Source: Clostridiaceae bacterium
GTDB taxonomy: Bacteria > Bacillota > Clostridia > Oscillospirales > Acutalibacteraceae
Direction: 5' to 3'
DNA: 64,000 bases
Assembly (NCBI GenBank): GCA_021769555.1
Contig: JAETSR010000007.1
Span: 32,017 to 96,016 of the forward strand
Positions 1 to 61,755 of the stretch are shown piece by piece. The position numbers and the translations under genes are program-made. Numbering within the stretch: position 1 is the stretch's first letter; every line of letters starts with the position of its first letter. The notes under the pieces are model-generated. The model was not told the origin of the DNA, searched no databases, and was given only the letters and a program-made list of their open reading frames with translations.

Positions 1-479
1 TCCACATGGGCGGGAAAGGCCGTGCCGCCGTACTGCTCACACAGGGCCTTCACCTCGTCCGCGCCGATATATGAGGCCACCAATAACAGGTCGTCCAGAG
101 TTCCTGTGAGTTCGTCGTTCTCATCCAAAATACGCTGCTCGCCGAATATCTCCGGCTTGTTTTTAATGTGCGGCATATTATCATATATGTACCTGTCGAA
201 CTCCATAGCACCCTCCAACGTCTCAAACAGGCAGACTACATGGGCCTCCTCGCCGGTGCAGAGCTCCATGCCCGGAATTGCAATAATCCCCGCCTCCTCG
301 GCAGCTTTGAGCACCGCCGGGGCGTTTTTACAGGTGTTATGGTCGGTGATGGCGATTATCTCAAGGCCGGATATCTGGGCCATGCCAACTATATTGTTTG
401 GGGTCATGTCGTTGTCCCCGCAGGGGGACAGGCAGGAGTGGATGTGCAGGTCATAGGGGTACGCTTTCAGGGCGCTCAT
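1..479 (-). CDS. PHP-domain phosphoesterase (runs off window start)
   Basis: Manual translation MSALKAYPYDLHIHSCLSPCGDNDMTP...IAITDHN: PHP HxH and TDHN motifs; ATGA overlap with the upstream DRTGG gene. Confidence 0.85.
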   Translation of the reverse strand, partial: MSALKAYPYDLHIHSCLSPCGDNDMTPNNIVGMAQISGLEIIAITDHNTCKNAPAVLKAAEEAGIIAIPGMELCTGEEAHVVCLFETLEGAMEFDRYIYDNMPHIKNKPEIFGEQRILDENDELTGTLDDLLLVASYIGADEVKALCEQYGGTAFPAHV

Positions 480-2127: not shown

Positions 2128-2559
2128 TCACCCCTTTCTTCCGGGAATCACCGTCATCTTCACCGTGGTGCCAACGCCCACCGTTGAGTCGATGGTCATC
2201 TCGTCGGTGTATTTCTTCATATTGGGCAGGCCCATCCCCGCGCCGAAGCCCAGAGCCCGCACGTTGTCCGGGGCCGTGGACCAGCCGGCCTGCATGGCCT
2301 GCTCCACGTCCGGTATGCCCGGGCCCTGGTCTATGAGGGCTATGTCCACCCTGTCCGGGTCAACGTCCACCACGGCCTCGCCGCCGCCGCCGTGTATCAC
2401 AAGGTTTATCTCCCCCTCATACATTGCTATAGCCACCCGGCGTATGGCGTCGGGCTCGTAGCCAAGCTTCTTGAGCTTGTGCTTCACGTCCCCCGAGGCC
2501 TCGCCAGCCCTTGTGAAGTCGTCCCCGGGCACCTGGTACTCAAGATGCAGCATGCTCAT
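2128..2559 (-). CDS. Anti-sigma regulatory factor, RsbT-like Ser/Thr kinase (HATPase fold)
   Basis: AMYEGEINLVIH, DQGPGI, GFGAGMGL; true start MSMLHLEY overlaps the upstream stop (ATGA). Confidence 0.85.
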   Translation of the reverse strand: MSMLHLEYQVPGDDFTRAGEASGDVKHKLKKLGYEPDAIRRVAIAMYEGEINLVIHGGGGEAVVDVDPDRVDIALIDQGPGIPDVEQAMQAGWSTAPDNVRALGFGAGMGLPNMKKYTDEMTIDSTVGVGTTVKMTVIPGRKG

Positions 2560-3061: not shown

Positions 3062-3119
3062 ATTGGAAAGCATACGTTTTATTATATTAGTTTGATGAAA
3101 GATTAGGAGGAAAGAAACC

Positions 3120-4205
3120 ATGTCAAGAGTCTACAATTTTTCCGCCGGCCCCTCCATGCTGCCGGTGCCGGTATTGGAGAAAGCCGCCGGCGAGCTTTTG
3201 GAGTACGGTACTACGGGCCAGTCGGTGATGGAGATGTCCCACCGCTCCGCTGCCTTCGAGCCCATCATCGCCGAGGCCCAGGCCCTCATCCGGGAGGTCA
3301 TGGGCATTCCCGAGAACTACAAGGTTCTGTTTTTACAGGGCGGGGCCTCAAGCCAGTTCGCCGCCGTGCCCATGAACCTGATGGTGAAGAACCATAAGGC
3401 CGACTATGTGCTCTCCGGCCAGTTCTCCACCAAGGCCTACAAAGAAGCCTCAAGGTACGGAGACTGCAAGGCCGTGGCTTCATCTAAAGACGACAACTTC
3501 AGCCATATCCCGGCCATTGACAAGAGCGAGCTGCGCCCCGACGCGGACTACCTGCATATCTGCATGAACAACACCATCTACGGCACCCTCTGGCACCAGC
3601 TCCCCGACACTGGCTCTGTGCCCCTGGTGGCCGATATCTCCTCCTGCATACTCAGCCAGCCGATTGACATAACCAGGTTTGGTTTACTGTATGCCGGGGC
3701 CCAGAAGAACGTGGCCCCCGCCGGGCTCACCATCGTTATCGTCCGGGAAGACCTCATAGGCGAGACCCTCCCCGGCACCCCCACCATGTTCGACTATAAA
3801 GTAATGGCCGACAACGACTCCATGTACAACACTCCCCCCTGCTGGCCCATCTATATGTGCAAGCTGGTGCTTGAGTGGATAAAGGACGACATCGGCGGCC
3901 TCGAGAAGATGAAGGAGCGCAACGAGAAAAAGGCCGGGGTCCTCTACGATTTCCTGGACAATTCCAAGCTCTTCAAGCCCTGCGCCGAGAAGGACAGCCG
4001 CTCCATAATGAACGTGACCTTCGTCACCGGCGACAAGGATTTAGACGCGAAGTTCGTCAAGGAGGCTTCAGCCGCGGGCTTCGTGAACCTCAAGGGCCAC
4101 AGGAGCGTTGGCGGTATGCGCGCGTCTATTTATAACGCCATGCCTCCCGAGGGCGTGGATAAGCTGGTGGAGTTCATGAGGGAGTTTGAGAACGCAAACG
4201 GCTGA
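3120..4205 (+). CDS. serC: Phosphoserine aminotransferase
   Basis: YNFSAGPS, EMSHRS, YAGAQKN (PLP lysine), GHRSVGGMRASIYNA. Confidence 0.97.
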   Translation: MSRVYNFSAGPSMLPVPVLEKAAGELLEYGTTGQSVMEMSHRSAAFEPIIAEAQALIREVMGIPENYKVLFLQGGASSQFAAVPMNLMVKNHKADYVLSGQFSTKAYKEASRYGDCKAVASSKDDNFSHIPAIDKSELRPDADYLHICMNNTIYGTLWHQLPDTGSVPLVADISSCILSQPIDITRFGLLYAGAQKNVAPAGLTIVIVREDLIGETLPGTPTMFDYKVMADNDSMYNTPPCWPIYMCKLVLEWIKDDIGGLEKMKERNEKKAGVLYDFLDNSKLFKPCAEKDSRSIMNVTFVTGDKDLDAKFVKEASAAGFVNLKGHRSVGGMRASIYNAMPPEGVDKLVEFMREFENANG

Positions 4206-16986: not shown

Positions 16987-18144
16987 ATGTCAGGCAGGCA
17001 CCATGCGGACAACCGCCCGAGCCTCTGGCTCATTATAGCAATAATAATCATACTCACCGGCCTGCTGGCCGCGGGCATACTGCTCGTCCGTGAGCTGGGC
17101 CTCAGGGAGGAGCCCGAGCCCCCATCCCAAAGCCCCTCCACGGCCCCCTCGAAAATAACCTCAGAGGTCGAACCCACGCCCACTCCCGAGCCCACGCCGA
17201 CGCCCACCCCGGAGCCCACCCCCACCCCCGGCCCCATACCCGACAACGGCGAGGACGGCTACCTCTCCGAGGGCATATACATCTGGAACAATATGGCCTT
17301 TGAGCTGTTCTACGGCTACGACGAGGCCTCGGACCCATACGCGAATGCAATAGACGGCTTTGCAAGGGACCTGCCCAGCGACGTGAAGGTATATAATATG
17401 ATAGTGCCGAACCACAGCGAGTACGGCCTGCCAGAGAGGCTCAGGGACAGCCTTGGCTGCAACTCGCAAAAGGACAATATCAGGTATATCTACGGCACCT
17501 ATAAGTACGCCCAGCCTGTAGATATCTGTGACGCCCTGGACCAGCACAAGGAGGAATACCTCTACTTCAACACCGACACCCACTGGACCGCCCGGGGAGC
17601 CTACCGCGCCTATGAGGAGTTCTGCAGAGCTGCGGAGGTCCCCTGCGCGGCCCTTGAGGAGTTCACCCTGACTGCCCACGAGCGGGACTTCTGCGGCTAC
17701 CTCGCCGAGGTCACCGGGGAGGACTGCCTGTATAATAACCCGGACCATATCGAGACCTTCGAGCCCGGCTACCCCTATAAGGCTGCAATGAGCTGCGACG
17801 GCTATGACTTTACAGAGCTTGACGGCGTGAACAGCTCCGACGCCTCCATGGGCTACAGCATGTTCCTCTGGGGGGACCTGCCCTGTGTGCGCGTAAAAAA
17901 TGAAAACTCATATATGAACAGAAAGCTTGCGGTGGTGAAGGAGTCCTACGGCAACGCCATCGGGGCCTTTATGGGCGCGAGCTTCGACGAGGTATATATG
18001 ATAGACTTCCGGAGCTTCTCCGGGAGCCTGCCGGACTTTATAAGGGACAACGGCATAACCGACGTGCTCTTTATGAACAGCGCCACCGCCGCCAATACCT
18101 ACCAGAGGGTCGAGGACCTGAACTCCCTTTTCCCCGGCGGCTGA
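16987..18144 (+). CDS. DHHW-family membrane-anchored protein with Pro-Thr linker
   Basis: TM, (EPTPTP)n linker, YFNTDTHWT, VKESYGNA. Confidence 0.75.
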   Translation: MSGRHHADNRPSLWLIIAIIIILTGLLAAGILLVRELGLREEPEPPSQSPSTAPSKITSEVEPTPTPEPTPTPTPEPTPTPGPIPDNGEDGYLSEGIYIWNNMAFELFYGYDEASDPYANAIDGFARDLPSDVKVYNMIVPNHSEYGLPERLRDSLGCNSQKDNIRYIYGTYKYAQPVDICDALDQHKEEYLYFNTDTHWTARGAYRAYEEFCRAAEVPCAALEEFTLTAHERDFCGYLAEVTGEDCLYNNPDHIETFEPGYPYKAAMSCDGYDFTELDGVNSSDASMGYSMFLWGDLPCVRVKNENSYMNRKLAVVKESYGNAIGAFMGASFDEVYMIDFRSFSGSLPDFIRDNGITDVLFMNSATAANTYQRVEDLNSLFPGG

Positions 18145-18213
18145 TAATTTGAGTCAGGAGGGCAATACTAACCCCTGTCCGACCACTTTCTATAATATAG
18201 GGGGGCATTTGCC

Positions 18214-18540
18214 ATGAGAAACAAGCTTGAATGTTCAGTGACCGCCTGCCGGCACAACGAGCACAACTTCTGCGACCTGCCCGGCATTAAGGTGGAGGGC
18301 CCCGGGGCCCGGGAGAGCCGCCAGACCTGCTGCGAGTCCTTCGAGCCCAGAAGCGGGAGCAGCAACAGCGTGGGCTCATGCGGCTGCGCGTCCGCCGAGA
18401 CCGCCATCGACTGCAAGGCCAAAAACTGCACCTATAACAACGACTGCCGGTGCGAGGCCGAATGCGTATGCGTTGGCTGCTGCTGCGACGACGTCACCGG
18501 CAAGTCCGGCACGGAGTGCTGCACCTTCCGCGAGGGCTGA
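18214..18540 (+). CDS. Cys-rich DUF1540-like protein
   Basis: Two CxxxxCxxNxxxxC repeats. Confidence 0.7.
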   Translation: MRNKLECSVTACRHNEHNFCDLPGIKVEGPGARESRQTCCESFEPRSGSSNSVGSCGCASAETAIDCKAKNCTYNNDCRCEAECVCVGCCCDDVTGKSGTECCTFREG

Positions 18541-18679
18541 GCTGAAGACAGGGCGTAAAAGGGAAAGCGCGGAGGGCGCCGGGCCGGTATGGCCCGGCGT
18601 TCTTTTTGTGCAATTTCCCAAATGGAAATCCGCCCCCGGGCATGATATAATGTACGCAAAAGAGCAGGGGGTGCGGGTG

Positions 18680-19519
18680 GTGTACGGCGCAATATTGGGT
18701 GATATAGCCGGGTCGCGCTTTGAGTTTACAAGGCCCGAGAAGTTCGACTGGCGGCGGGAGGAGCTCTTCAACGGCATGAGCAAATACACCGACGACACTG
18801 TGCTCACCGTGGCCACGAAATACGCGGTGCTCACAGGCGTGCCCTATTTCCGGGCCTATCAGCGCTTCGGGCGGCGGTACATGCAGGCGGGCTACGGGCC
18901 AATGTTCAAGAACTGGCTGCACGCCCACTCACAGCGGGGGTATAACAGCTACGGCAACGGCTCGGCCATGCGTGTGAGCTACATAGGCCTGCACTTTAAT
19001 ACCCTCGAGGAGGTGGAGCGGGAGGCCCGGGAGAGCTCCCTCTGCACCCACGACCACCCCGAGGGGATAAGGGCCGCCATAGCCACGGCCGCCGCGGTGT
19101 TTATGGCCCGCACCGGGGCCGGCAAGGGCGAAATAGCATATTATATGAGAAGGCGCTATAAATATACCGTGGCCCGGCCCCTGTTCCTGTACCGCCCCTT
19201 CGGGAAATTCGACGTGACCGCCATGGGCACCATGCCCCTTGCCATACGCTGCTTTCTCGAGTCCGAGGACTGGGAGAGCTGCATAAGGAACGTTTACAGC
19301 GTTAGGTGCGACACGGACACCGTGGGCTGCATAGCCGGGGGCATAGCCGACGCCTTTTACGGCGGCACCGGCCAGGACGAGGACGCGCTTCTGAGGCGCT
19401 ATCTCATACGCCCCAACCGTGTGGGCGCCTTTGACACATACCTGTACGACTGGGCCGTGAAGACCCCGGAGGAGTACAGGCGGGAGAAAGAGGAGAAACA
19501 GGAGAAGGGAGAGACCTGA
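18680..19519 (+). CDS. ADP-ribosylglycohydrolase family protein
   Basis: GAILGDIAGS, YTDDT, SYGNGSAMR, DTDTVGCIAG; start approximate. Confidence 0.88.
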   Translation: MYGAILGDIAGSRFEFTRPEKFDWRREELFNGMSKYTDDTVLTVATKYAVLTGVPYFRAYQRFGRRYMQAGYGPMFKNWLHAHSQRGYNSYGNGSAMRVSYIGLHFNTLEEVEREARESSLCTHDHPEGIRAAIATAAAVFMARTGAGKGEIAYYMRRRYKYTVARPLFLYRPFGKFDVTAMGTMPLAIRCFLESEDWESCIRNVYSVRCDTDTVGCIAGGIADAFYGGTGQDEDALLRRYLIRPNRVGAFDTYLYDWAVKTPEEYRREKEEKQEKGET

Positions 19520-19520
19520 G

Positions 19521-20018
19521 ATGATACTGCAAACCTACCAGTCCAAGGTGGTGCTGCGCACCCTGAAAGGCGGCGAGGTCTACAGGGCCAAGCCCAACCT
19601 CAGCCTTCGGGGGGAGTACAACGCCCTGATAGACATGCTGGGGCTCCACTGCGAGTGCCCGGTCTTCGCGGTGGTGAAGGGCAGAAAGCAGAACACCGGC
19701 GGAAAGGTGTCCGGCTCGGTGCAGCTCACCCTGGACGTGCCCGAGGAGCTTGTGCATATAACCGAGTACAGCGTCTGGGCCGACTTCATCTACGCCTTCA
19801 AGTTCTCAAAGCCCGGCAACTACAAGGTGCTCCGCCCGGACTGCGAGGAGATTTCCGTGCGGCGGTACAACGAGCTAATGGAGGACCTAAGGAACCAGAG
19901 AAAGCTCAGCGCCTACGAGTGCCCCCAGGTGGTGCTGGAACGGATAGAGCCGGGCTGGCTCAAAAGCGTGAAGATGTTCGGCAAAAGCGGGCTATTCGGC
20001 CGGCTCAGGCGGGGATAG
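19521..20018 (+). CDS. Hypothetical protein (DUF3841-like)
   Basis: Starts 1 nt after the ARH stop; LxLDVPEE...WADF resembles DUF3841 from memory. Confidence 0.5.
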   Translation: MILQTYQSKVVLRTLKGGEVYRAKPNLSLRGEYNALIDMLGLHCECPVFAVVKGRKQNTGGKVSGSVQLTLDVPEELVHITEYSVWADFIYAFKFSKPGNYKVLRPDCEEISVRRYNELMEDLRNQRKLSAYECPQVVLERIEPGWLKSVKMFGKSGLFGRLRRG

Positions 20019-20119: not shown

Positions 20120-20530
20120 CTACTTGTCGAAGGAGGGGTTAAAGGCGTAGAAGTTCTTGCTGTCCAGCCGGTCGGTGAGGATACGCAGGCCCTCGCCGAA
20201 GCGCTGGTAATGCACGACCTCCCGCTCCCGCAGGAACTTGATTGGCTCCGCCACATCAGGGTCGTCTGCAAAGCGCAGGATGTTGTCATAGCTGAGGCGG
20301 GCCTTCTGCTCGGCCGCCAGGTCCTCGTTCAAATCCGCGATGGGGTCGCCGGTGACGGCAAATGTCGCCGCGGAGAACGGCGTACCCGAGGCCGCCTGGG
20401 GGTAGACGCCGGTGGTATGGTCCACAAAGTAGTCCGCGAAGCCCGCCTCCTCTATCTGCTCGGGAGTAAGGCACCGGGTCAGCTGGTAGACGATGGTGCC
20501 GACCATTTCAAGGTGGGCGAGTTCTTTCGT
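20120..20530 (-). pseudogene. cotJC: 3' portion of Mn-catalase/spore coat gene, interrupted by the prophage
   Basis: Reads (GTK)ELAHLEMVGTIVYQLT...GDPIADLNEDLAAEQKAR...LREREVVHYQRF; N-terminal third missing; no SD before the ATG at 20506. Confidence 0.88.
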
Positions 20531-20564
20531 ACCAAGAGGTTATCAATGGAAAAGGCCAAAAGTG

Positions 20565-20867
20565 CTAGTAGTTGTAGTGCGCTCCTGTCTCCTGCGAGAG
20601 GCACCCGGCGCAGAATCCGAGCATTTGGTAGGCCCGGGAAATTCTACCGGCGGCAGAATCAATCTCAAACCGGAGCTCCGGGTCGGATATTCTGTCCAGG
20701 GTCTCCTTGAACGCCGCCTCAGCCTGCTGGATGTCCGGTATGGTAAACTTCTCTGCAAGCTGGGCCGCGAACTCGCTGTCGGCGAGAGTGTAGAAATAGT
20801 CGGCCTTTTGCTGCCAGCGCTCTGCGGCGCTGCGGGGCCGTGTTGGTGTGCGTGTCAAAATGTCCAT
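20565..20867 (-). CDS. Phage hypothetical protein
   Basis: GGAGGT SD, 100-aa ORF ending about 35 bp from the att junction. Confidence 0.7.
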   Translation of the reverse strand: MDILTRTPTRPRSAAERWQQKADYFYTLADSEFAAQLAEKFTIPDIQQAEAAFKETLDRISDPELRFEIDSAAGRISRAYQMLGFCAGCLSQETGAHYNY

Positions 20868-20879
20868 GATAACCTCCGG

Positions 20880-21362
20880 CCTAAATACTACTCCCGTCCC
20901 CGTAAGGGGGTAGGGGGTATATCTCTTTTATCCTTTATCTTATATCTTACATCTTATATCTTATATAGCTTGCGCATTTTTGCGTTTTGCTTTCGGCTTG
21001 CTTAGTTTTGCTTGCCGTTTGCTTACGCGGTGCTTGAAAGCAAGATGAATCAAATTGCCGGAAAGCCTTGCAAATGCTGGGGATTTTTGCTTTCGCTTTG
21101 CTTGAGAGCTTTTTCCGGGTCAAAATCGCGGAAATGCAATATAATTCCTTGCGGGAAATATTATACCTTTCCTGGGGTCTGCAGTCCACTTGAAATGCTG
21201 CTGCTTATCAAAATGGCGCGAACTGCTTTTCGCAAAATGCTTGTCCCGTTTGTGAAAGCAAAATGAAGTGTGCTTGCGGAAAAATAGCGCTTGCTTATCG
21301 TCTGCGTGTGTTTTGCTTGCCGTTTGCTTTCGTTTGCGTGTGTTTTGCTTACGGCTTGCTTA
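20880..21362. repeat. (T)TTGCTT-rich region with a 20-bp direct repeat
   Basis: GTTTTGCTTGCCGTTTGCTT at 21005-21024 and 21310-21329, plus many TGCTT units. Confidence 0.75.
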
Positions 21363-26494: not shown

Positions 26495-27937
26495 TTAGCT
26501 CAAAAGAGCATTTACCTTATTCTGAATTGTGTCGTAGTCGTACCCTGCGGCCTGTAGGCGCTGTTTGCGCTCCTCGCCAGCGCCCCACTTACCCGCGATA
26601 ACCTCCTGGGCGAGTTCGGCTACGGTCTTCCCGTTTGTGCTGCGGGCGGCTATGTCCGCAGCGTCTACCCAGCCATAGACGTTGCTTGTCCCGTCCGTAT
26701 GTATTACATGGTATGGGTGTTTCGCGCCGCTGGCAATGGCCGTGACCTTTGCGGGGCCAGGGCGGCACTCCGGGCCGGTGACGGCGTTGGAGTTTGCATA
26801 ATGCCTGCTCCCGGTAAAGTCCCTGATATCCCCAACCTTAACCTCCCCGAAGCTGCTGGGGAGCGTCGTCTCGGGATATGAAGGAACTGCGCTGGCGGGG
26901 CCCGCCTTGCTGCTGTACTTGGGGACGCCATAGCCGCGAATGTACCGTCCGTTGACTGTTATCGTGCGCCGCCCCACACTGTTTGAATAGTTCCCCTCAA
27001 TAACAGTGATGGTCTGTCCGCTGACCTTCTCCACAATGCCAACGTGGTCTGCCGGGGCGGTGCAGTCTCCCGCGCCGCTGTCGTCCCAATTATAGAAGAT
27101 GTAGTCGCCGGGGGCCGGGGTGTAGGCGTCGTTCTCCACCCAGCTCCCCAGGTTCTTAAAGAGCTGGATATGCTTCTCGCAGCCGCACTCCGTAGGAATG
27201 ATGTCGGTAAGCCCTGCCTTTATTGCCACGGCGCTGGCGAAGGTGCTGCACCATGCGTCGGTGTAAGTGACGGCGTAGCCACGGGCCAGCGGTTTGTGGG
27301 AGTTGTACAGGTCAATAATTTTCCGGTGGGAGCCGTCGCTTTCCCTGCAGCCGAGATAGCTCTGGGCTATGCTCACAATCTTCTGCCGTAACTCCTGCTC
27401 TGTCATGGTGGTGCCTCCTTTGCTGGCGTATTTATTGTAGATGGTCTGGCCGTAGGCCGCCCGCTTGGCCTTTACGGTCTCGCTTTGGTCTGCTGGGCGC
27501 TCAAATTGGGTAAGCACCATGTCGCTGGCCGTCCGGACGGAGGTGGCCGTCTTGAGGGCCACCAGAAGGGAGGTGTGCCCCTCTGAGAGCTCCTTCCAGA
27601 GAAATCCGAGCTGCATTTCCAGGTCGCCGATGGACTTTTTCGCGGCCCGCGCGAAGTCCAAAAGGGCTTTCTTGCGGCTCCAAAATGTCCACTGTGCAAG
27701 CCCGTAACCGGCGCAGTCGTGTACGAAGTTGGTGTAGGCCCCGCTGTCTACATCTGCGGTGTAGGTGCTGTCTGTATAGCCAAGGGCCCCTTCGTAACCG
27801 TTTTCCAGATTGTCCGGGCGGAGTCCGCTCTCGAAGTAGAGGTTGTCCACAAGGCCCGCCGCGCCCGCGAGGCTCAACCCCTTTCGCAAGAGGTAGTTCA
27901 CAATGCGCTCCTCGTTCGTGTTTCCTTTCAAACTCAT
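26495..27937 (-). CDS. Endolysin: phage tail lysozyme, CHAP, SH3-like and Cpl-7 domains
   Basis: NLYFESGL/GYGLAQWT; AWCSTF, DHVGIV, IEGN; VAELAQEVIAGKWGAGEERKQRLQAAGYDY. Confidence 0.92.
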   Translation of the reverse strand: MSLKGNTNEERIVNYLLRKGLSLAGAAGLVDNLYFESGLRPDNLENGYEGALGYTDSTYTADVDSGAYTNFVHDCAGYGLAQWTFWSRKKALLDFARAAKKSIGDLEMQLGFLWKELSEGHTSLLVALKTATSVRTASDMVLTQFERPADQSETVKAKRAAYGQTIYNKYASKGGTTMTEQELRQKIVSIAQSYLGCRESDGSHRKIIDLYNSHKPLARGYAVTYTDAWCSTFASAVAIKAGLTDIIPTECGCEKHIQLFKNLGSWVENDAYTPAPGDYIFYNWDDSGAGDCTAPADHVGIVEKVSGQTITVIEGNYSNSVGRRTITVNGRYIRGYGVPKYSSKAGPASAVPSYPETTLPSSFGEVKVGDIRDFTGSRHYANSNAVTGPECRPGPAKVTAIASGAKHPYHVIHTDGTSNVYGWVDAADIAARSTNGKTVAELAQEVIAGKWGAGEERKQRLQAAGYDYDTIQNKVNALLS

Positions 27938-29120: not shown

Positions 29121-29301
29121 TACTCATTACCTCCATGACCTGCTCGAATACGTCGCAGAGGGCCATCTGCGTGTCCTCGAGCTGTGTTTCCAAGGTGTTC
29201 ACCTTGGTCTGCAGCGCCTCGTTCTCTGCCTGGAGCTGGGCCCGGCTTTTCTGTTTGCTGCGCTCCTTAACAGAATCCTTTCTCTGCACATTCAGTCCCA
29301 T
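29113..29301 (-). CDS. Small coiled-coil tail-associated protein
   Basis: MGLNVQRKD...QMALCDVFEQ; TAATG overlap with the DGR target stop. Confidence 0.65.
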   Translation of the reverse strand: MGLNVQRKDSVKERSKQKSRAQLQAENEALQTKVNTLETQLEDTQMALCDVFEQVMEVMSNG

Positions 29302-31151
29302 TACTGGAATCCTCCTTGAATCGAAGTGATGTAGCCGCCCTTGCCGCTCTCGCCCCGCTCGACCGTAACACGGAAATTGAAGGCAAAACCGCTGGCGGCT
29401 GTTTCGTTCGTAAATACATGGTTTGCGCCGTTCTTGACCTCCGTAGTGCACTCCTCCCACACAGGGGTCTCGTCGTTGGCGTTGTTCGTGACCTCTACCT
29501 TGTACTCTGCGTCGGTGGGTATATCCCCCGTGACCGATAGGACGCATACCGTGATTTTGGCGTCGGCCTCCATGGGCTCGTCCAGGCTGATGGACGCCGC
29601 CGTAACCTCTTTGGTGAAGGTGATCTCATGGGCGCTGGCCTCTTTGCCGTCGCTGGCGGTGATTTTCAAGGTGTGCTGGCCGTTGGCAAGTTTCATGAAG
29701 TATTCGCCGGTAACTGCGAAGCTGTTGCTCGCCGCCGGGTCAGCCGTGAAGCTGCGCTTCAAGGCCCCGTCTATTGCCTCGGAGACCGTAATGGGGTCGC
29801 TGTCTGCGTCGCTTACCTGGTAGGAGATAGTGAAGCCTGCGCTTTTCGTTCCCAGGTCGCCGGTCGTGGTGCAGACGATAGCGGGAGGGGTGTTATTGTT
29901 GACCGTCCGGGTTTCAGAGGTGGAATAGTCGCCGTAGGCGCTGTGGCTATCGTAGGCCCGCACACGATATGCCACGCTGGCCCAGCCCTTTGTAATGCTA
30001 TCAGTAAAGCTCAGGGCAGTCCCGGAGTAAATCTGCGTCCACTCGCCCCCGTCCACCTGGCGCTCCAAGCTGTACCCGGCCAGATCGCCGTCGCTGTCCG
30101 TGGCCGCGCCCCAGGTGATTGCTAAATTGCCGCCGCCCATCACTGTATTAGGAACGGTGATACTGGTGGGCGCTCCGGGCGCGAGGTTGTTTATCACGGT
30201 TATCGCGGCGCTCGTTCGGTAAGCCGAACTCGCGCCGTCGGTGTCGTATGCTTTTACTCTGTACTGAACTGTTCCGGTGCCGAAGGGCACCGGATTGGTG
30301 GTGCTCCTGCTGCTGCCCTGGTAAATCTGGGCCCAGCTCGCGCCGCCGTCCGTGCTGCGCTCTACGATGTACCCCTCCAGGTTGCTCTCTGCGTCGCTGC
30401 TGGCGGCCCAACTGACCGTGATAGTTTCCCCACCCTGTATGCTCTCCGGGATGGTAATGCTCCCTGGCGTAGTGGGAGCCGTGTTCGTATTTACCGAGCC
30501 ATCGTCAGAGACCAAGAGTGAAGAGGGAAGTATCAAAGCGGGGCGGACGCCATAGGTGCCGGCGCAGCTGCCGTAGTCGTAATTGCCACTGGAGTTGACG
30601 CCCCAGGCGCCGCTGGCGACGCCGGTGTCCGGGGAGCGGAGCCACCAGCTGGTGGCGGAGCCGTTGTAGTTGGCTATGCGTTTATTAAGGGCGCTTTGCC
30701 CGGTGCCGTTCTCGAAGTATGAGAGCTTTGCTCCATCGGTTGGAAAATAGCTGTTGTCGCTTGTTGTGAATCCTACCTCATATCCAGACAGCAGGAAGAC
30801 CTTGCAGGATAGGCCGTTGGCCCCGGACGCCACGGCGCTGTTGGCGGTGCCGTTGACATACGGGAGCTTGACCTGCTTTACCTGGGCCTGGATGTTGGCG
30901 TCCAGCTTGTTTATCCAGGTGTTGTTGAGATAGGCGTGAATGGCTGAATTTTTGTAGTCATTCACATTTGAGCTATGCCACTGACGGGTTTCCAGCATAT
31001 CCTTGAGCAACAGCCAAACGCCGTCGCAGGAGGAATCGTAAAGGGTGCTGGGCCGCCCCTTGTGGACGATGATAAAGTCGCGGAGAACGCCGTCAACCTT
31101 GAGTTTGACGGTACTGCCGACCGCTTTCGAGTTTAGTGCTACTGCTGCCAT
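29301..31151 (-). CDS. DGR target tail protein: N-terminal variable (CLec/DUF6273-like) domain, two Fn3 repeats and Ig-like C-terminal domains
   Basis: Contains the VR at aa ~165-207 (WWLRSP...GVRPAL); two repeats with W..ASD...GY..ER..DGG..W.QIY...YRV.AYD. Confidence 0.92.
   Translation of the reverse strand: MAAVALNSKAVGSTVKLKVDGVLRDFIIVHKGRPSTLYDSSCDGVWLLLKDMLETRQWHSSNVNDYKNSAIHAYLNNTWINKLDANIQAQVKQVKLPYVNGTANSAVASGANGLSCKVFLLSGYEVGFTTSDNSYFPTDGAKLSYFENGTGQSALNKRIANYNGSATSWWLRSPDTGVASGAWGVNSSGNYDYGSCAGTYGVRPALILPSSLLVSDDGSVNTNTAPTTPGSITIPESIQGGETITVSWAASSDAESNLEGYIVERSTDGGASWAQIYQGSSRSTTNPVPFGTGTVQYRVKAYDTDGASSAYRTSAAITVINNLAPGAPTSITVPNTVMGGGNLAITWGAATDSDGDLAGYSLERQVDGGEWTQIYSGTALSFTDSITKGWASVAYRVRAYDSHSAYGDYSTSETRTVNNNTPPAIVCTTTGDLGTKSAGFTISYQVSDADSDPITVSEAIDGALKRSFTADPAASNSFAVTGEYFMKLANGQHTLKITASDGKEASAHEITFTKEVTAASISLDEPMEADAKITVCVLSVTGDIPTDAEYKVEVTNNANDETPVWEECTTEVKNGANHVFTNETAASGFAFNFRVTVERGESGKGGYITSIQGGFQ
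30532..30659 (-). repeat. DGR variable repeat (VR)
   Basis: 128-bp ungapped match to the TR; 21 mismatches at TR adenines plus one in the 3' IMH. Confidence 0.97.
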
Positions 31152-32353
31152 GTTTCTCCTTTCTGCTGGCCCTGCGGTGTAATGCGTATGGGCTGCGGGG
31201 AAAAAGAAAAGGGGCTTGGCTCTCCGGCCAGCTCCCGCTTTTTCATGATGTTCTTATACTGTTTCAGTCTACGCTTTGCCCGCACTTCCCGGGTGGAATT
31301 TATCTTTCGGTGAATCTTTACCTTTTCACCGATGATTTCTTCCACCTGGTCAGCGTATTTCCGCCGTAGGGAATGGGTGTCGCCGTGGGCTGCGTGTGCG
31401 TCCCACGAGGTGAACTTTTCAACAATCTTTTCCTTGCTTATTTTGCCCTCCGGGTAATCCCTCCTCCATTTTTTGATTCTGCCCCTTATGCGGTTGATAC
31501 TTTCCTGCCGGAGTTTCTGGACTACGCCGCCGTTCTCCGTCAGGTAGGAGTGAAAGCCGAGGAAGTCTATGCCGTTCCTCAGTGGGAAAATGGCGGTCTT
31601 GTCGTTCAGCTCCAGCTTGTACTCGGACATCAGGGCCTGCACGTCTTTCAAAAGCCTTTGCAGCTCTGCCTTGTCCGGCAGGATGACAAAGAAATCATCC
31701 ATATACCGGCCATAGCGCTTTATCTGATACTTTTCCTTGATGATATGGTCGAACTCGTCAAGGAACATCAGGGCAAAAAGCTGACTTGTCTGGTAGCCCA
31801 GGGGCAGGCCGGGGGTGGTGTCTATGTAGGTGCATAGAAGGTAATACACCTGCCAGTCAATGTCCTTGCGCTCCATGAGCCTTTGCAGTTTAGCTTTCAG
31901 AAGGTCGTGGTCTATGCTTGCGAAAAAGTGGTGTACATCACATTTCAGCACCCATCCATCCGCGCTGCCGGTTTTCCGGTAGTAGTCCACCATCTGCTGC
32001 TTGAGCCGCATAAGGCCGTCGTGCGTACCCTTACCCTTTTGGCTGGCGTAGTTGTCCCGGATAAAGCTGCTGGTGATGGCGTCGTAGATGATATTGTCCG
32101 TTACGGCGTGGAGCACTACCTTGTCCACAAAAGCCGGGGCCTGCACGAGCCGTTTCTTTGGCTCATACACATAGAAGGTCTCGAACCGGCTGGGCCGGTA
32201 CTTTTGGGTGGAGAGGATATGGGATAGCTTTTCGGTGCAGGCCAGAGCGTTGGCCTCGTATTGGGCTGTAGCGGCCTTGGCCCGCTTTCGCTTTCTGGCC
32301 TCGAGATACCCATTGTAGAGCACTTCAAATGAGCATAATTCTTCAAATGTCAT
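31139..32353 (-). CDS. DGR reverse transcriptase
   Basis: Start MTFEELC (GGAGGT SD); YVYEPKKR, KCDVHHFF, GLPLGYQTSQ, RYMDD. Confidence 0.97.
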   Translation of the reverse strand: MTFEELCSFEVLYNGYLEARKRKRAKAATAQYEANALACTEKLSHILSTQKYRPSRFETFYVYEPKKRLVQAPAFVDKVVLHAVTDNIIYDAITSSFIRDNYASQKGKGTHDGLMRLKQQMVDYYRKTGSADGWVLKCDVHHFFASIDHDLLKAKLQRLMERKDIDWQVYYLLCTYIDTTPGLPLGYQTSQLFALMFLDEFDHIIKEKYQIKRYGRYMDDFFVILPDKAELQRLLKDVQALMSEYKLELNDKTAIFPLRNGIDFLGFHSYLTENGGVVQKLRQESINRIRGRIKKWRRDYPEGKISKEKIVEKFTSWDAHAAHGDTHSLRRKYADQVEEIIGEKVKIHRKINSTREVRAKRRLKQYKNIMKKRELAGEPSPFSFSPQPIRITPQGQQKGETWQQ

Positions 32354-32583
32354 TTGACCTCCCAAATTTAAGCTCTCCGGGGGGTAGAGGAGGCTCCCGG
32401 AAAGCACCATGCCTAAACGCCGGTCTGTCCTCCTCGCAGCAGCCTGCTGCGCCCCATCTGGGGCGGCTGGCCTCGGCGTGATGTATTTATCCCCAGCCCC
32501 TCCGGGGCTGACGACAGGATATGGCTCCCTTTGATGTGACGGCGTACTGCTTTCACCCTTTTGGGTTACTCGTCTAACATTCC

Positions 32584-32711
32584 ATCAGAGCGGGGCGGAC
32601 GCCATAGGTGTTGGTGCAGTTGTTGTTGTTGTAATTGCCATTGGAGTTGACGTTCCAGGCGTTGTTGGTGTTGTTGGTGTTCGGGGAGCGGAGCCACCAG
32701 TTGGTGGCGGA
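32584..32711 (-). repeat. DGR template repeat (TR)
   Basis: AAC-rich: SATNWWLRSPNTNNTNNAWNVNSNGNYNNNNCTNTYGVRPAL; lies between avd and RT. Confidence 0.97.
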
Positions 32712-38273: not shown

Positions 38274-38942
38274 TTATGGTATCGTTAATACTTGCCCGCC
38301 GTATATCAGGTTGGGATTCCCTCCAATCACCCCTTTGTTGGCGTTGTAAATCTTCGTATATTGGCTACCGTCGCCGTAAAATTTCTTGGCAATATTCCAG
38401 AGGCAGTCTCCGGCCTTTACTGTATAAGTCTTTGGCTTTACAGTATTATCCACTCGGGGCTCCTCCTTCTTCACAGTTGCCTTTTTGGTGGGAATGTCCA
38501 CCTTTACCTGCCGTACCGTGATTTCCCTGTACTCCTTCAATGAGATGCTGTACTGGTAGGTGCCAGGGTCGCCGCCCTCCTCGGAATAGTCGAAACTCTC
38601 TATGGTGACAAAAAGGTCTATCCCGCAGGCGGTCGCTATGAAGTGAACAGGCTTTTTGCTTGCTTTCCAAGTGTTGATTCGCTCCACCAGTTCAAGAGGT
38701 TTGGTGATTTTTGCAACCTTAATGCCTGGAAATCTGGTGGCCGGAAAAAAACTGGAAAAACTAAATTGCAGGGCTGGGCGGCTCTGCAGGATAACGACCT
38801 CTCCCAGCCCTGTAATGTCCATACTGTCATTTTTGCTCCCGTTGCGCGTCTGGAAAGAGGTAGGGAGTACCGGGAGCTGTATTTTCTCCTTCTCTGCGTT
38901 GTAGGAGAGCCACATTTGGTAATTCGGGGAATTAGTAGTCAT
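38274..38942 (-). CDS. LysM protein (XkdP-like)
   Basis: YTVKAGDCLWNIAKKFYGDGSQYTKIYNAN. Confidence 0.9.
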   Translation of the reverse strand: MTTNSPNYQMWLSYNAEKEKIQLPVLPTSFQTRNGSKNDSMDITGLGEVVILQSRPALQFSFSSFFPATRFPGIKVAKITKPLELVERINTWKASKKPVHFIATACGIDLFVTIESFDYSEEGGDPGTYQYSISLKEYREITVRQVKVDIPTKKATVKKEEPRVDNTVKPKTYTVKAGDCLWNIAKKFYGDGSQYTKIYNANKGVIGGNPNLIYGGQVLTIP

Positions 38943-41900
38943 AGGCCATATCTCCCTCCTCGAAGACCTCCTCCTGGAGAATGTTCATAAACACTGACTT
39001 GGCGTTGTCCATAAGCACGTCGAGAATGGTATTCTTGTCCACGCCGGTGCTACCACCGACTTCCATACGCCCACTGCCGGAAATCTCAAGGAATATTCTC
39101 TTGATTTGCTCGCCAGCGCTCTGGCGGCTCCCGCTGTCTCCTCGGGATTCCATCAGAATGGGGGAGGGCTCTGGCCGGTCGTTTAGGGCGTGTATAAGCC
39201 TGTCGGTTTCCTCTGTGGGGAATACAGTGCTGCCCTGCTGCCCGAGAATGAGTTCCGGTCCATCATCCCCGGCTATAAAGGCGTTCGGGCTCTCTGTCGT
39301 GCCGTTTGCAAAGGCATCTACTTTTCGGATAATCAGCTCCGGCCCATCCTCGCCAGCGACAAATGCGTTTTCTGCGTTTGTGGTGCCGCTTGCATGGCCG
39401 GGAACTGTGCCGCTGGTATTTACCCTTAGATTGAGAGCCGCTTGTGTCTGTAGGGCCGCTGCAACCGCAGTAGCGACCTCCCTGGCAGCCGCAACAGCGG
39501 CCCCCTTTGAGTTGCGTATGGAGCTGACGTATGCGTTAATGGTGGCCGTAGCCGAAGCTGCTGCCTCGTCGCTCAGGTTCATACCCTCGACGGTTTCCTG
39601 CATTTCTCGCTCTATTTCGTCCATCTGGGAGGTGAAGTCTGTGACCCAATCGGCGGTAGTGGCGGCAATTTCCTGCTGCTTTGCGCTGACCTCTCCGACC
39701 GTGTTTGCGAGCTCTGCGACGGCCTCTGTGTTGCCGCTGTTGATTGCCTCTGCCATGCTGGCGGATAGTCCTGCGGCCTCCTCTGTGCCCCCCTGGGCGT
39801 ATGCCATTAGAGCCTCATAGTTTTCCTGCGTAATGCCTAAGTCGGCTGCAGACGTGCTTTTAAGCACTTCTATGTTGGCTTGATAGTTGTTCCAGTAGGC
39901 GAGCTGGCTGTCGAGCGCGGCCTGGGCGTTTGCCACGGTGGCGTTCATGTACTCCTCAGATTCCATGGACGCCTGGTCGAAAAGGCCGAACTGTCCTTCC
40001 ATACTGGCAAGCGCGGATTGGTAGACTTCATCGTAGGCAGCGCACAGCTCGTCAATCCGTTCCTTCGTACTCTCAATGGCTGCGCTTACGGCCTCCTCAT
40101 AGGTGGGGGGTACCTCTGCTGCGGCCTCCTCTGCTTCTGCGAGTTTCCCCCAATACTGCTCAATCTCTGCAATACCGGCCTCGTTCTCTGCTATGCTGGC
40201 GTTGAGCTCATCTATGGCCTCCCGGTATGACTTAATGTCCGTTTGCCAAGCTGTGGCCCACTCGCCGCTGTAGGTGCCGTCCCCGTTGTCAATGATGTTG
40301 TTTGCCTCGAGCTCGGCATTGTAGTTCGCCTGAGCCTTTGCAAGCTCCTCGGTCAGTTCTTCGCGCTTGAGCAGCGCCTCTACATACGCGTCCTGGGCCT
40401 GCTCCATGCGCTGCTGTTCTGCCTGCTGCTCGCAGGCTTGGCGCATTGCCTCTGCGAAATCCACGGCGCTCCCGGAGGTCTTTTCGAACTGGGCGGCCAG
40501 GTCGGGGTAACTCTCCGCAAGCCTTTTTGTGACTGCTTCAAGCTCCTTCTCTTGGGCTCCCGTGAGGTTTGTCTGTGTGGCAAGGTCTTCATATTTTTGG
40601 ATAAGGGAAAGCGCTCCCAACTCCTGAGTGTGAATGTCCTCTGTACCGCTGTTATACTCTGTCCAGAGCTTATCAACACTCTCACATAGCGCGTCAACCT
40701 CTGCGGTGAACTCCTCGACCGTCTGGCGGCTGGCCTCAAAAGCTGCGGACAAATCGTCCACCTGGTACTTGAGCCGGGACGCCTCCTAGGAGGTCTCTCC
40801 GTACTTTTCGCAAGCCTCCTCGTACTCTGCGTTGAGGTCTTGGAGCTCATAATACTGGTTACGGGTAACTGCGGTCATGCCTGCGGTTTCGTCCTCGGCG
40901 TCCTCCATCATTGCGATAAAGGCTGCCCCCGCTGCAACAACTGCAGTTAACCCAATAGCTACCCAGCCCACCGGGCCAAGAGCAACATTAAGAGCCACGC
41001 CAAAGGTTGTTATTGCGGGGATTGCAACGGTTGTTGCGAATGAAACTGCCGCTATTCCGGCAGATACGGTTCCTATGCCTACCCCAACTGCAACGATAGC
41101 CTTGGTGAGCGTAGGGTGCTCATTGAGAAAATCACCCACGCCATTCATGACGTTGGCAAACCCGCTGGAAACCTTGTCAAGTGATGGCTGCAAGGCCTTA
41201 GTGAAAGCAGTGCTAATATTGTTGCTGGCCTTTTGCCATTTTTCCGAAAGGCTCTCTCCCGCTTCGGCGGTTTTCGCCAGTGTTCCGTCTGCTTCCTCCA
41301 GGGTGGCGGTAAAAGTGTCAACAGATACCGTACCGCTCCCGATTGCAGAAGCAAGCTGTTGCCCTGCTCTGCTCCCGAATGTTTCCACTGCGAGCGCGGT
41401 CGCGTCGGCGGCGTTCTCCATTCCGGCTATCTCTGCTATGACTTCCTGCAAGGCAGTTCCAGCGTCCTTGCCATCTTTTGAGAATCCGGTGACGGCGGTT
41501 CGCATGGCCGTGATGGCTGTGGTGCTGTTTATGCCTGCCAGCTCAAAGTCGGCCAGCATTTGGATGGTGCTGTCAAGGGAAAGCCCCGCCTGCTGGAAAG
41601 AGGCTGCGCCCGTAATGAGCGTGTTGCTTAGGGTGTCTACCGAAGCGCCGGAAATCTGCCCAGCATAAGCGAGCCTGTCCATTACCCTCTCTACGTCTTG
41701 GCCCTCGACGCCCCACTGGTTCATGACCTTAGTGACGTTTTGTACCGAGCCGACGACGTTTGTGCCAGTGATGTCCGCGAAGTCCAAAAATTTCCCGGTT
41801 ACGTCTGTAAGGGCGTCCCCGGTCAGGCCCATGCGCGTGTTGATCTCGCCAACCGCTGCCGCAGCGTCTTGCAGTGAATCATCGTTTCCGGCATACGCTT

Positions 41901-42525
41901 CGAGCATACTACTCCCGAGGCTGTCAAGAGCTGCCCCGGTTGCTCCTGTCGCATTTACGACAACCTTTTCGGCCTCGCTGTAAGCGTCAACGAGCTCGTA
42001 GGCTGCCTCAGATATCTCTTTTATTGTGGCGGTGATTCCCGCCGCCGCAAGGGCGCTGGCTATGCTATTTACAGCGCTGGTGCCTTTGTCTCCCATTTCC
42101 TCCTGAGCCTGTCCGGTCTCCTCGCTCTGCTCTGCCATCTTGTCGAGCGCTTCCTCTGCCTCCTGGGCTGCCGTCTGCTCAGATTCAAGTGCCTCCTGCG
42201 TCTTGTAGCCCATTTCGACAAGCTCCTCGGTGGTGTAAATGGCCTCAAGCGCAGATTTGTCATAGTTCCCGATGGCGTCAGTCCAGTAGTCCGTTTGGTC
42301 GGCAGCGTCGCTGGCCGATGTGCTATATGAAGTCAGAGAGGTGGCTACCCCATCAACGGACGAGGCAGTGGCTGTCGCGCTGCTTACAATCCCGTCAAAG
42401 GCCCCGCTTGCGGTATCTCCGGCCTGTTCAAACTGCTCCACCATGGACATACCCGCTTGTGATACGTTGGCAATGGCGTCGCTCATCCTGTCCACTAAGC
42501 TGAATACTGCGGTTAGGTTTGGCAC
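38932..42525 (-). pseudogene. Tape measure protein interrupted by an in-frame TAG at 40786-40788
   Basis: ORFs 40786-42525 and 38932-40761 share one frame: ...YGETS*EASRLKYQVDDL... Confidence 0.88.
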
Positions 42526-45525: not shown

Positions 45526-46932
45526 TTATCTGGTGTTGACGGTGAAGTACATTTTTTCAGCGCTGTCAACCGCCTGCAGGCCGATGTTGAAGAATGTCTC
45601 GTCGTCGTAGCTGGCCTCCCGGTCTACCAGGAAGTCCCGGCTATAATCGACATTGGTAATGGCTCCGGCCTCGTAGAACAGCTTGAGAATGGTGTTCCCC
45701 AGACCCTCCATGATGTCCCAGCCGCGAGGTTCGTTGTCGAACTTGTTGGGCGGGAAGTTGACCTTAACATATTCCTGGAAGGTGTCGAATACGCGGATGA
45801 CGCGATTCTTGCGGTAGCTCTTGTCTTTCTTGTTCTGCTTTGAGAAGGTGGTGAGGGAGTTGATGTCGTACTCGACCACGACCTCGTCCTCCTCGTTGAC
45901 GGAGAAGAAGAACTCGCCAGCCTTGATGGCGGCGATAGCCTCGTCGTTGCTCTTAGGCCCGACAACAGCCGTCGCTCCTTCGTACAGGTTGTAGGTCAGG
46001 CTCTCGATGTAAGAGGCCCCTGCGGTCGCTCCGGCCACCCAGGCGCATACCTCGGCAGTGCTCAGGTCGTTCCCATCAATGGAGATACTGTTCGTGACAT
46101 TGATAATGCCCTCGTAGTCCATCCGGCCTGCGTTGGGAATAACAGCCTGTACGCCTCTGCCCATGCTGTCTCTCATATACTTGATTTTGGTGAGCACGGC
46201 CTGTTTGACATTCGTCGCCTCCTGGCCGTCGAAGGGGAAACACACCGTATTAAAGCGAATGCTCTCCCATGCGTCAATGAAGGCGGTGATATCGGCGTTG
46301 GTGGTCTCCTCATCGGTACCGCCGGACAGGTTCGTGCCTGCGGCCTCTCCGAGGCTGCCTGTGCCCTTGAAGTCCAGGTACGGGTTATTCTGCTCGATAA
46401 GCTCCTCGATGGTCTCCAGGCCCTCGTATTCCGTAACCTTTGCACCGTCAAGATGGACAAGGACATCATAGCCTCCCAGAGGGTTGGCGTCCACGGTCAC
46501 CGTGAATGCGTTGCCCCTTGTGCCGCCGTACTTGGCAATGGCTGTAAGGGTGTTTGTGGTGGCCGACGCTCCTTCGCTTCCCGGGTCTGCGGGAATAGAC
46601 ATGGAGATTTCCGCCTGCGCCTCTTTGCCCTCGCTCATGACATAGACGTAAACGGTGGTAGCCCGCTTGAACGCCTCTCGAATGAGCAACATCTGGCGGT
46701 TGGGGTCATCGTCGTAGATACTGTAGCCAAATGTGGCCGCTCCTGCGTCCGGGCTTTCATTTGTCAGTTTGATAAACTGCTTACCAGGGCCATAGTTGGC
46801 TTTCGGGAGCGGGACAATAACGGTTCCTCTGGTGCCTGCTCCAACTACGGCAATATCCCGGCTGCTCTCGAAGTTCATATAAGTGCCCGGGCGCACCTTC
46901 CCGACGGCCTTGTCGAACTTTCCTCCTGCCAT
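45526..46932 (-). CDS. Tail sheath protein (XkdK-like)
   Basis: MAGGKF...KVRPGTYMNF; VEYDINSLT; YRKNRVIRVFD. Confidence 0.92.
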   Translation of the reverse strand: MAGGKFDKAVGKVRPGTYMNFESSRDIAVVGAGTRGTVIVPLPKANYGPGKQFIKLTNESPDAGAATFGYSIYDDDPNRQMLLIREAFKRATTVYVYVMSEGKEAQAEISMSIPADPGSEGASATTNTLTAIAKYGGTRGNAFTVTVDANPLGGYDVLVHLDGAKVTEYEGLETIEELIEQNNPYLDFKGTGSLGEAAGTNLSGGTDEETTNADITAFIDAWESIRFNTVCFPFDGQEATNVKQAVLTKIKYMRDSMGRGVQAVIPNAGRMDYEGIINVTNSISIDGNDLSTAEVCAWVAGATAGASYIESLTYNLYEGATAVVGPKSNDEAIAAIKAGEFFFSVNEEDEVVVEYDINSLTTFSKQNKKDKSYRKNRVIRVFDTFQEYVKVNFPPNKFDNEPRGWDIMEGLGNTILKLFYEAGAITNVDYSRDFLVDREASYDDETFFNIGLQAVDSAEKMYFTVNTR

Positions 46933-56365: not shown

Positions 56366-56860
56366 TTACTCTCCCATCCGCCTCTTGTATGCTGATACTA
56401 TGGTCTCTGCCAGACTAGATGTCTGCGTGTCGTCCCTGGGGGCTGCTGCGGCCTCGTCTTTTTGTACTTCCCTTTCGAGGCGTATACCCTCAGTGATAAA
56501 TCGCAGAATGTCTTTGGGCTCCATGTCTTCTATGTCCAGATTGTTCAAGGCCTCGACGGCCTTTTTTTGCAGGAAAACGGCGGTTTTAAGCTGCCGTTCC
56601 CGCGCTTTCTTGATTTCCTGCTGTTTGGCTGCGAACTCTTTCCGCTGCAGCTCTGTATCGTATTCACGGCTCCTCTGCTGCCAGTTCCATGTGCTGCTCC
56701 ACCGGCTTATCAAAGTGTTGCTTTTGCCTAACTTTTGCGCAACTTTCCGTAAACTGCGCTCAGAGCCCATTTCAAGGTAGAGGTAAAACGCCTCATAGGC
56801 CGGTGGGCTCTCCTTTGGCTGGCGCTCCCAGGGCTTTTCAGTCTTACTTTGTCTCGCCAT
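56366..56860 (-). CDS. Terminase small subunit
   Basis: WERQPKES...RSLRKVA HTH; precedes TerL. Confidence 0.8.
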   Translation of the reverse strand: MARQSKTEKPWERQPKESPPAYEAFYLYLEMGSERSLRKVAQKLGKSNTLISRWSSTWNWQQRSREYDTELQRKEFAAKQQEIKKARERQLKTAVFLQKKAVEALNNLDIEDMEPKDILRFITEGIRLEREVQKDEAAAAPRDDTQTSSLAETIVSAYKRRMGE

Positions 56861-61647: not shown

Positions 61648-61755
61648 GGCAGCCTCCTCCCGTTTCGTTTCGCGTCGGAAATTTTCGTAAAAAAGCACCG
61701 CCCCATGGGGTTCCCCATTGAGCGGCGCATTTACAATCATAAATTTACATTTTAT

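Follow-up and report, generated by a model that had tools for sequence, protein, structure and literature searches.

Sporulation genes that are split by a prophage and rebuilt by its excision have been described in a small number of Bacillus and Clostridium strains. The elements skin (sigK), SPbeta (spsM), vfbin (spoVFB), vrin (spoVR), and gin (gerE) are established cases of developmental excision (PMC4191935, PMC5025042, PMC5595907, PMC6957869), and the excision of yin from yabG of C. botulinum is reported to depend on growth phase (PMC10747680). SPbeta of Bacillus subtilis, one of the known systems closest to the present locus, employs the integrase SprA and the directionality factor SprB (PMC4191935, PMC5499854). 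According to bioRxiv 10.1101/2021.11.22.469490, Abe et al. (2013) counted the spore-coat gene cotJC among frequent integration targets, and another preprint (bioRxiv 10.1101/2022.02.25.481979) notes that cotJC of Laceyella sacchari holds a skin-like element; both are in silico mentions of a single line. No att-site analysis, frequency survey, or experiment on cotJC was found in the literature at hand, in which Abe et al. (2013) is represented by the paper that cites it. Here, we describe a cotJC that is split by an apparently active phage in a poorly cultured or uncultured gut family, and for which both att sites and the free attP have been defined.

The analysis started from a stretch of 64,000 nucleotides (the window), which corresponds to positions 32017-96016 of contig C23 in genome G000. 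The host is a gut spore-former of the Oscillospiraceae that carries SpoIVA and a single cotJ operon, of which cotJC is the last gene (cotJA-cotJB-cotJC). On the minus strand, window positions 20533-20504 read GGT ACG AAA GAA CTC GCC CAC CTT GAA ATG (GTKELAHLEM), and the reading frame remains open from there to a stop codon at 20122-20120. The encoded piece matches positions 63-197 of the Pfam Mn_catalase profile PF05067 (E = 1.3e-26) and is 98.6% identical to the joined CotJC described below (tblastn). Two in-frame stop codons lie just 5' of this piece, and no GGAGG or similar Shine-Dalgarno sequence was found 5' of the ATG at 20506. Relatives read GTEELAHLEM or GTEELSHLEM at the position of GTKELAHLEM, the GGTACGAAAG at the junction being the contribution of the phage arm, which mimics the host's GGCACCGAAG. 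An earlier note, made from the window alone, had reported phage DNA leading into GTKELAHLEM and then into the C-terminal two-thirds of CotJC, had named GTEELAHLEM as the usual motif, had seen no Shine-Dalgarno sequence before the remaining ATG, and had estimated the crossover at about 20521-20535. The letters and the Pfam match agree with this description, the core shared by both junctions falls within the estimated interval (Table 1), and the DNA upstream does encode phage proteins (portal, Mu F, sheath, tape measure, baseplate J, and endolysin). On the other side of the gene, the order of the host flank genes is identical in the sister genome G367. Because both cotJC junctions recur in many independent public assemblies, the split is not a chance pattern.

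A PF05067 profile search of the whole G000 genome matched in three places: the window piece (profile positions 62-198), contig C2 (positions 2292-2486, minus strand, profile positions 1-66), and a full-length paralogue on contig C27. The piece on C2 comprises codons 1-65 of cotJC and ends in ...LTDIGTEE, with cotJB (PF12652, 91 bits) and cotJA (PF11007, 61 bits) directly upstream. Contig C23 ends inside the start of a repressor gene, and C2 starts seven bases further on; the missing bases are GTCTCTT. As five independent public assemblies carry this join, the element is one piece of 61,069 bp, running from window position 20527 to the end of C23, across the 7-nt gap, and through C2:1-2291. Within its left part, a stretch of 21.4 kb shares 99.2% identity with Logan contig L007. 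The 5' portion of cotJC and the integrase that the earlier note had expected at the far end are therefore both in place on C2, together with cotJB and cotJA. The paralogue on C27 was considered as a second cotJC and rejected, being only 35% identical to CotJC and adjoined by neither cotJA nor cotJB, so that no intact second copy was found in the genome.

The G000 assembly is a draft of 73 contigs in which the halves of cotJC lie on separate contigs, as might be seen if assembly or binning had brought together halves from different organisms or had produced chimeric junctions. We give such an artefact practically no credence: several independent assemblies contain attL with cotJB and cotJA, several contain attR beside the same host genes, and several contain the C23/C2 join, while the halves share a single reading frame and agree with G367 at nearly every base. 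Directly upstream of cotJA (contig L004, G000:C2 3018-8100) there is also a compact phage-like module with genes for a LexA/S24-type repressor, a terminase large subunit, a holin, an amidase, and an M23 peptidase, as well as two small ORFs. The module is conserved in this position in G367, L023, and L024, and may represent the remains of a second phage or a lysis cassette next to the cotJ operon.

Table 1. Positions of the features discussed in the text. Positions refer to the window unless contig C2 or CotJC residues are named; the four split sites are those of the family-wide survey.
Feature	Position	Strand	Basis or remark
Host flank: DHHW protein, DUF1540 protein, ADP-ribosylglycohydrolase, 165-aa ORF	16987-20018	+	Pfam
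cotJC 3' part, codons 66-198 and stop, host DNA	20120-20521	-	Pfam match; attR B' arm at the 5' end
Crossover core AAGAA, in codons Glu64-Glu65 of the ExxH motif	20522-20526	-	Alignment of attL, attR, G367 attB, and L105 attP
attR phage arm TTGATAACCTCTTGGTACGA, half of the attP imperfect inverted repeat	20527-20546	-	Partner arm at attL
Prophage, left 43.5 kb	20527-64000	-, nearly all genes	Gene content; join to C2
ORF beside attR, 100 aa, no known family	20565-20867	-	Used as marker
Endolysin-like protein (Phage_lysozyme2, CHAP, CW_7)	26495-27937	-	
Diversity-generating retroelement	29301-32711	-	RVT_1, DUF6273, template and variable repeats
Retroelement target gene, DUF6273, 616 aa	29301-31151	-	Variable repeat at 30532-30659
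Retroelement reverse transcriptase, RVT_1	31139-32410	-	Template repeat at 32584-32711
Tape-measure gene, 1197 codons, PhageMin_Tail	38932-42525	-	Amber-interrupted
Contractile tail sheath	45526-46932	-	Phage_sheath_1 and related domains
Mu F-like head protein	52440-53408	-	Phage_Mu_F in the identical L007 gene
Portal	53411-54967	-	Phage_portal in the identical L007 gene
Large serine recombinase (LSR), 534 aa	C2:628-2232		Domain matches; ends 60 nt from the attL core
Split site A, motif QYGGP/HGE	CotJC residues ~30-33		~13 genera
Split site B, motif GTEE/LAH	CotJC residues ~64-66		~17 genera
Split site D, motif DLAAE/QKAR	CotJC residues ~134-137		4-5 genera
Split site C, motif RFGE/GLRI	CotJC residues ~173-177		4-5 genera

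On the cotJC strand, attL reads GGCACCGAAGAA followed by TCTGTACCCGGAGGTTATCAA, and attR reads TTGATAACCTCTTGGTACGAAAGAA followed by CTCGCCCACC; the arms around the core are TTGATAACCTC..GGTAC and GTACC..GGAGGTTATCAA, and AAGAA is common to both sites. Joining the host arms yields ...GATATAGGCACCGAAGAACTCGCCCACCTTGAAATG..., translated DIGTEELAHLEM, with the attB sequence GGATATAGGCACCGAAGAACTCGCCCACCTTGAAATGG. The product is an in-frame CotJC of 198 aa that matches Mn_catalase positions 1-197 with no gap (171 bits) and is 79-86% identical to the intact CotJC of relatives. The sister genome G367, which belongs to the same genus, is uninterrupted at this site (site B in Table 1) and supplies a natural attB with just two synonymous base differences from the joined sequence. 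The phage arm at attL on C2 (TCTGTACCCGGAGGTTATCAA) is the partner of that at attR, and the two are contiguous in a 38-kb ENA metagenome contig (L105), which carries the attP form: 113 of the 114 predicted bases match, and the order is the 100-aa attR-bordering ORF, attP, the LSR, and the repressor gene. The resulting attP is an imperfect palindrome of ~46 bp with a centre that mimics the host codons, and such an imperfect inverted repeat of the phage arms is expected of a serine-integrase attP. The restoration of cotJC upon excision that the earlier note had inferred is thus borne out, with the frame restored exactly, by the joined attL and attR, and the attB and attP that it had proposed to reconstruct both have natural counterparts, in G367 and L105, respectively. 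The sole mismatch in the L105 attP (GAAAGCATCTG vs. GAAAGAATCTG) lies just right of AAG, and the attL copies read GAAGAATCTG in eight of eight cases; the mismatch is probably a polymorphism of the L105 phage. The central dinucleotide of the crossover most likely falls within AAG, as AA or AG. A 32-nt stretch of the predicted attP had no exact match in IMG/VR, and it is in this stretch that the L105 attP has its one SNP.

The recombinase at the attL end lies directly behind an XRE-type repressor gene. Its domains (PF00239 Resolvase at aa 5-157, PF07508 Recombinase at 183-304, and PF13408 Zn_ribbon_recom at 318-371, followed by a tail of 160 aa) are the resolvase, recombinase, and zinc-ribbon domains and the long C-terminal region of the LSR family, and its presumed catalytic serine lies in YLRKSRAD. 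An identical protein was found on 14 contigs, and its close relatives belong to Oscillospiraceae and Oscillibacter of mouse and other guts. When relatives with at least 55% identity were collected from IMG/VR and GTDB genomes, 12 of the 17 were found to adjoin a cotJC fragment broken at aa 61-68, in either orientation. The LSRs of Paenibacillus medicaginis (50% identity) and Chengkuizengella (47%) likewise adjoin a cotJC broken at these residues. In Thermoflavimicrobium, which belongs to the family of Laceyella, an LSR with 44% identity also splits cotJC, ~10 codons further on, near codon 78; the element mentioned for L. sacchari shares this target gene. To judge from these neighbourhoods, members of the LSR clade sit in cotJC at the same place in both Clostridia and Bacilli. 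The cultured Paenibacillus larvae phage phiIBB_Pl23 (NC_021865, L111) encodes an LSR that is 53% identical to that of the prophage and is followed, at positions 3100-3145, by a similar attP-like palindrome whose CTCTTC centre is GAAGAG (Glu-Glu) on the other strand; this phage probably uses the same Glu-Glu target in cotJC.

The element has the gene content of a tailed phage. Its structural genes encode a portal, Mu F-like and HK97-gp10-like proteins, a contractile sheath, a tube, a tape measure, a LysM protein, and baseplate J; its replication genes encode a DnaC-like loader, an SbcCD-like ATPase, and a primase-like protein; and its lysogeny module consists of the repressor, cro, and the LSR, with a sigma-A-like promoter. 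Genes on the attR side resembled accessory genes of conjugative elements, and an integrative conjugative element was considered and rejected in view of the full tailed-phage module. No match to GenBank phages was found by megablast with 23 kb of the element. The diversity-generating retroelement has repeats of 128 nt with 83% identity, 26 of the 39 mismatches falling at template adenines, and the template repeat contains AAC runs. Among other genes, the window encodes a radical-SAM-like protein (56844-58145) and a protein with a weak match to TCAD9, a ternary-complex-associated domain (60580-61740), both of which may serve in counter-defence or modification. A series of 7-nt repeats (GATATAA, GATGTAA, GATATAA, GATAAAG, ...) separates the 100-aa ORF from the gene that follows it (20900-20975, minus strand); similar repeats, of the CTTATAT type, adjoin the attP of a related phage, L043, and the repeats may be bound by a regulator or by the excision machinery.

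Copies of the same phage were found in a range of genomic settings. The 100-aa marker protein is indexed in identical form in 116 blocks of an assembly collection. The host flanks vary between phage copies: the cotJC DNA is 92.8-96% identical to that of G000 in some, at least four different gene neighbourhoods occur downstream of cotJC, and the phage is also inserted in cotJC alleles that are already split at site A (L025 and L027) or site C (L101). Since these flanks differ between copies with an identical LSR or attR marker, the phage circulates among several hosts, and the element is a circulating temperate phage, apparently one that is active or was so very recently. The earlier note had offered a tail-defective tape measure as a sign of domestication. 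The defect itself is present in G000, where codon 580 of the tape-measure gene (window 40786-40788) is TAG instead of GAG through a single G-to-T difference, so that with all structural, lysis, replication, and lysogeny modules present this copy is nevertheless not intact throughout. Recoding of the amber codon was considered and rejected, as there is no tRNA in the window and the sister copies read GAG. The amber codon would also suit a domesticated, defective element of the skin kind, kept solely as a developmental switch, but we consider this very unlikely: the lesion is a single base change, the gene is intact (1197 aa, GAG) in five other copies (L007 and L009-L012), no module is missing, and the phage has been found in no fewer than four host contexts as well as in the attP form. 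The G-to-T difference could be a real and recent knock-out, a minor variant, or an error in the assembly consensus, and the G000 copy is at most a freshly crippled form of a circulating phage.

With its insertion inside a sporulation gene, its own LSR near a junction, a shared core with flanking repeats, and an ORF restored by joining, the arrangement is, on this sequence evidence, of the SPbeta/skin type, a kind already known; the joined protein likewise has the full-length PF05067 match and the place as third gene after cotJA and cotJB that characterize CotJC. Like SPbeta in spsM, the element is a large temperate phage with an LSR at one end that lies inside a mother-cell spore-envelope gene, its exact excision would rebuild the ORF, and, as for SPbeta, related defective copies exist in other species. 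In contrast to SPbeta, the target is cotJC, the host belongs to the Clostridia, the phage is a different one, and the LSR lies behind the repressor gene; moreover, no SprB-like gene or sporulation promoter was found in the cotJC phage, and its developmental excision from cotJC is putative. The skin elements in sigK (SpoIVCA/Skr in B. subtilis and CD1231/CD1234 in C. difficile) are also LSR elements that split a mother-cell gene, with clostridial examples (PMC5025042, PMC6957869); however, skin is defective, a remnant lodged in a regulatory gene on which sporulation depends, whereas the cotJC phage is apparently functional and occupies a structural coat gene. Similarly, gin in gerE of B. cereus (PMC5595907) and yin in yabG (PMC10747680) are LSR elements that split sporulation genes, and gin is a non-phage element, as are inserts of 3.4-13 kb in the cotJC of relatives. 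Unlike gin and yin, which are single elements of single strains, the cotJC of Oscillospiraceae holds up to three elements per gene, across many genera.

The extent of this splitting was surveyed in 71 genomes of at least 90% completeness, one per genus, in which the listed matches were sorted by eye. Among these listed matches, the cotJC orthologue was intact in 33 genomes and in pieces in 29, including G000; a single piece was found in three of the split genomes. Apart from the genus of G000, cotJC is therefore split in 28 of the 61 genera that have the gene, and the splits fall at four fixed sites (Table 1), with inserts of 3.8 to 73 kb where these could be read on one contig. Two or three inserts in the same cotJC were seen in G003, G026, G028, G030, G037, G367, and G408. 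Each of the four sites lies in or beside one conserved CotJC block, and these blocks presumably hold the di-metal ligands (near Glu35, Glu65/His68, Glu136, and His169), as in Mn catalases. The site A LSRs form a clade of their own, being 40-65% identical to one another and 23-27% identical to the prophage LSR, and three or more unrelated LSR lineages target site B.

Several of the individual inserts are informative in their own right. In G367, a 23-kb defective prophage occupies site A, and a 12.7-kb non-phage island at site C (G367:C62, ~70370-83100; L031-L033) carries an LSR, a complete type I restriction-modification system (hsdR, hsdM, and hsdS), and two AAA ATPases; this is in effect a defence island parked in a sporulation gene. 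The site C LSR is preceded by a sigma-E-like GTATT-N15-CATACATT, 29 nt before the start codon. The cotJC of G408 is in four pieces, with three inserts at sites A, B, and D (L094 = G408:C10:57001-70000; L095), two of which are only ~4 kb long and contain little beyond a serine recombinase. The isolate Oscillospiraceae bacterium 38-13 (G402) has a 3.4-kb insert at site B (L096, G402:C3:89001-96500) that encodes an LSR and a 484-aa membrane transporter, and it is a culturable candidate for excision testing.

Whether a split cotJC is still under selection can be judged from two species of one genus, G071 and G235, which share a non-phage element of 8.6 to 9.8 kb at site A whose divergence is like that of the flanks. 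Their 3' cotJC pieces differ at 33 bases, of which 31 are synonymous and 2 non-synonymous (omega 0.016), and the five changes in the 5' piece are all synonymous; the LSR of the element itself has an omega of 0.13. Across the family survey, split copies are ~71-81% identical to the joined CotJC query and intact copies ~66-79%, and the split frames are open. These low omega values and conserved open pieces argue that split cotJC, which is under strong purifying selection in G071 and G235, is still functional and hence rebuilt at some time. This argument rests on elements other than the G000 phage, and it assumes that the insert shared by G071 and G235 is older than the split of the two species.

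The anatomy of the locus and the integration and excision of the phage by its LSR are held with high confidence, the timing of excision being a separate matter. In the lysogen, cotJC would be off while the phage is integrated, and phage excision would require the LSR plus a directionality factor. The terminal mother cell may also trigger excision, as it does for SPbeta in spsM, in which case the coat gene would be rebuilt there while the forespore would keep the prophage. From what is known of B. subtilis and C. difficile, we take the cotJ operon to be expressed in the mother cell, and upstream of cotJA in G000 lies AC-N16-CATAAAATA, a sigma-K-like mother-cell pattern. That the G000 phage is excised during sporulation is a real possibility, though we would stop short of calling it probable.

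An explanation with a similar claim, also falling a little below an even chance, is that of a plain lysogenic insertion, in which the conserved ExxH-coding stretch serves as a low-cost and widely available landing site, cotJC stays broken even in sporulation, and excision occurs only on induction. Such an insertion would fit a phage that is active in several hosts and as attP, with a classical repressor/cro/integrase module and a sigma-A-like promoter, and a host that has a 35% identical paralogue on C27. Scans of the element for the parts of a developmental switch also leave room for it. No excisionase or directionality factor was recognised by PHROGs scans of 20 small or early phage proteins, and tblastn of the element's ORFs of at least 35 aa against small elements of the same LSR clade (G003, G016, and G030) found only the LSR in common. 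The 100-aa ORF on the attR side was considered as a directionality factor and is a poor candidate, not being conserved beside related recombinases. A regex search for mother-cell-type (sigma-E or sigma-K) promoters before the LSR or any phage gene gave only chance-level matches; as the motif was calibrated on the cotJ promoter alone and misses the region upstream of spoIVA in the host itself, this negative result is a weak one. A hairpin of -21 to -30 kcal/mol, absent from the list of a simple terminator scan, separates the LSR from attL and would be predicted to stop cotJ read-through; with the LSR directly behind the repressor gene and this hairpin between the LSR and the incoming cotJ transcript, no obvious coupling of the LSR to cotJ transcription was seen. 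The presence of this phage in several hosts points to a recent acquisition, which has left selection little time to shape the G000 copy. Mutants in cotJ of B. subtilis have mild phenotypes, and by analogy a simple inactivation of cotJC may be tolerated.

The observations that speak against a permanently broken cotJC come from the other elements: in about half of the genera the pieces are open and conserved like intact genes, inserts reduced to ~4 kb retain intact recombinases, and the split gene of G071 and G235 shows the excess of synonymous changes given above. For sporulation-timed excision, the family-wide comparison, in which small inserts keep their LSR and split cotJC is as conserved as intact cotJC, thus makes a plausible case. 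We lean slightly towards the view that the cotJC-splitting elements of Oscillospiraceae are generally excised during sporulation.

The elements held in cotJC, up to three per gene, range from recombinase-only remnants of 4 kb, through type I restriction-modification islands and transporter cargo, to phages of 60-70 kb. We tentatively propose, as a possibility somewhat weaker than an even one, that cotJC in Oscillospiraceae acts both as a developmental gene with several locks and as a safe harbour that mobile elements share, with a probably wider reach in Clostridia and some Bacilli, and that rebuilding this one coat gene would take the removal of all of its elements in the mother cell, each of them being retained in the forespore. 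The att sites and recombinases are candidate orthogonal integration tools. Taken across the family, the splits suggest that gut spore-formers may commonly rearrange the DNA of a coat gene in a programmed way; if this is true, phages and defence islands would have in cotJC a major point of entry into these organisms.
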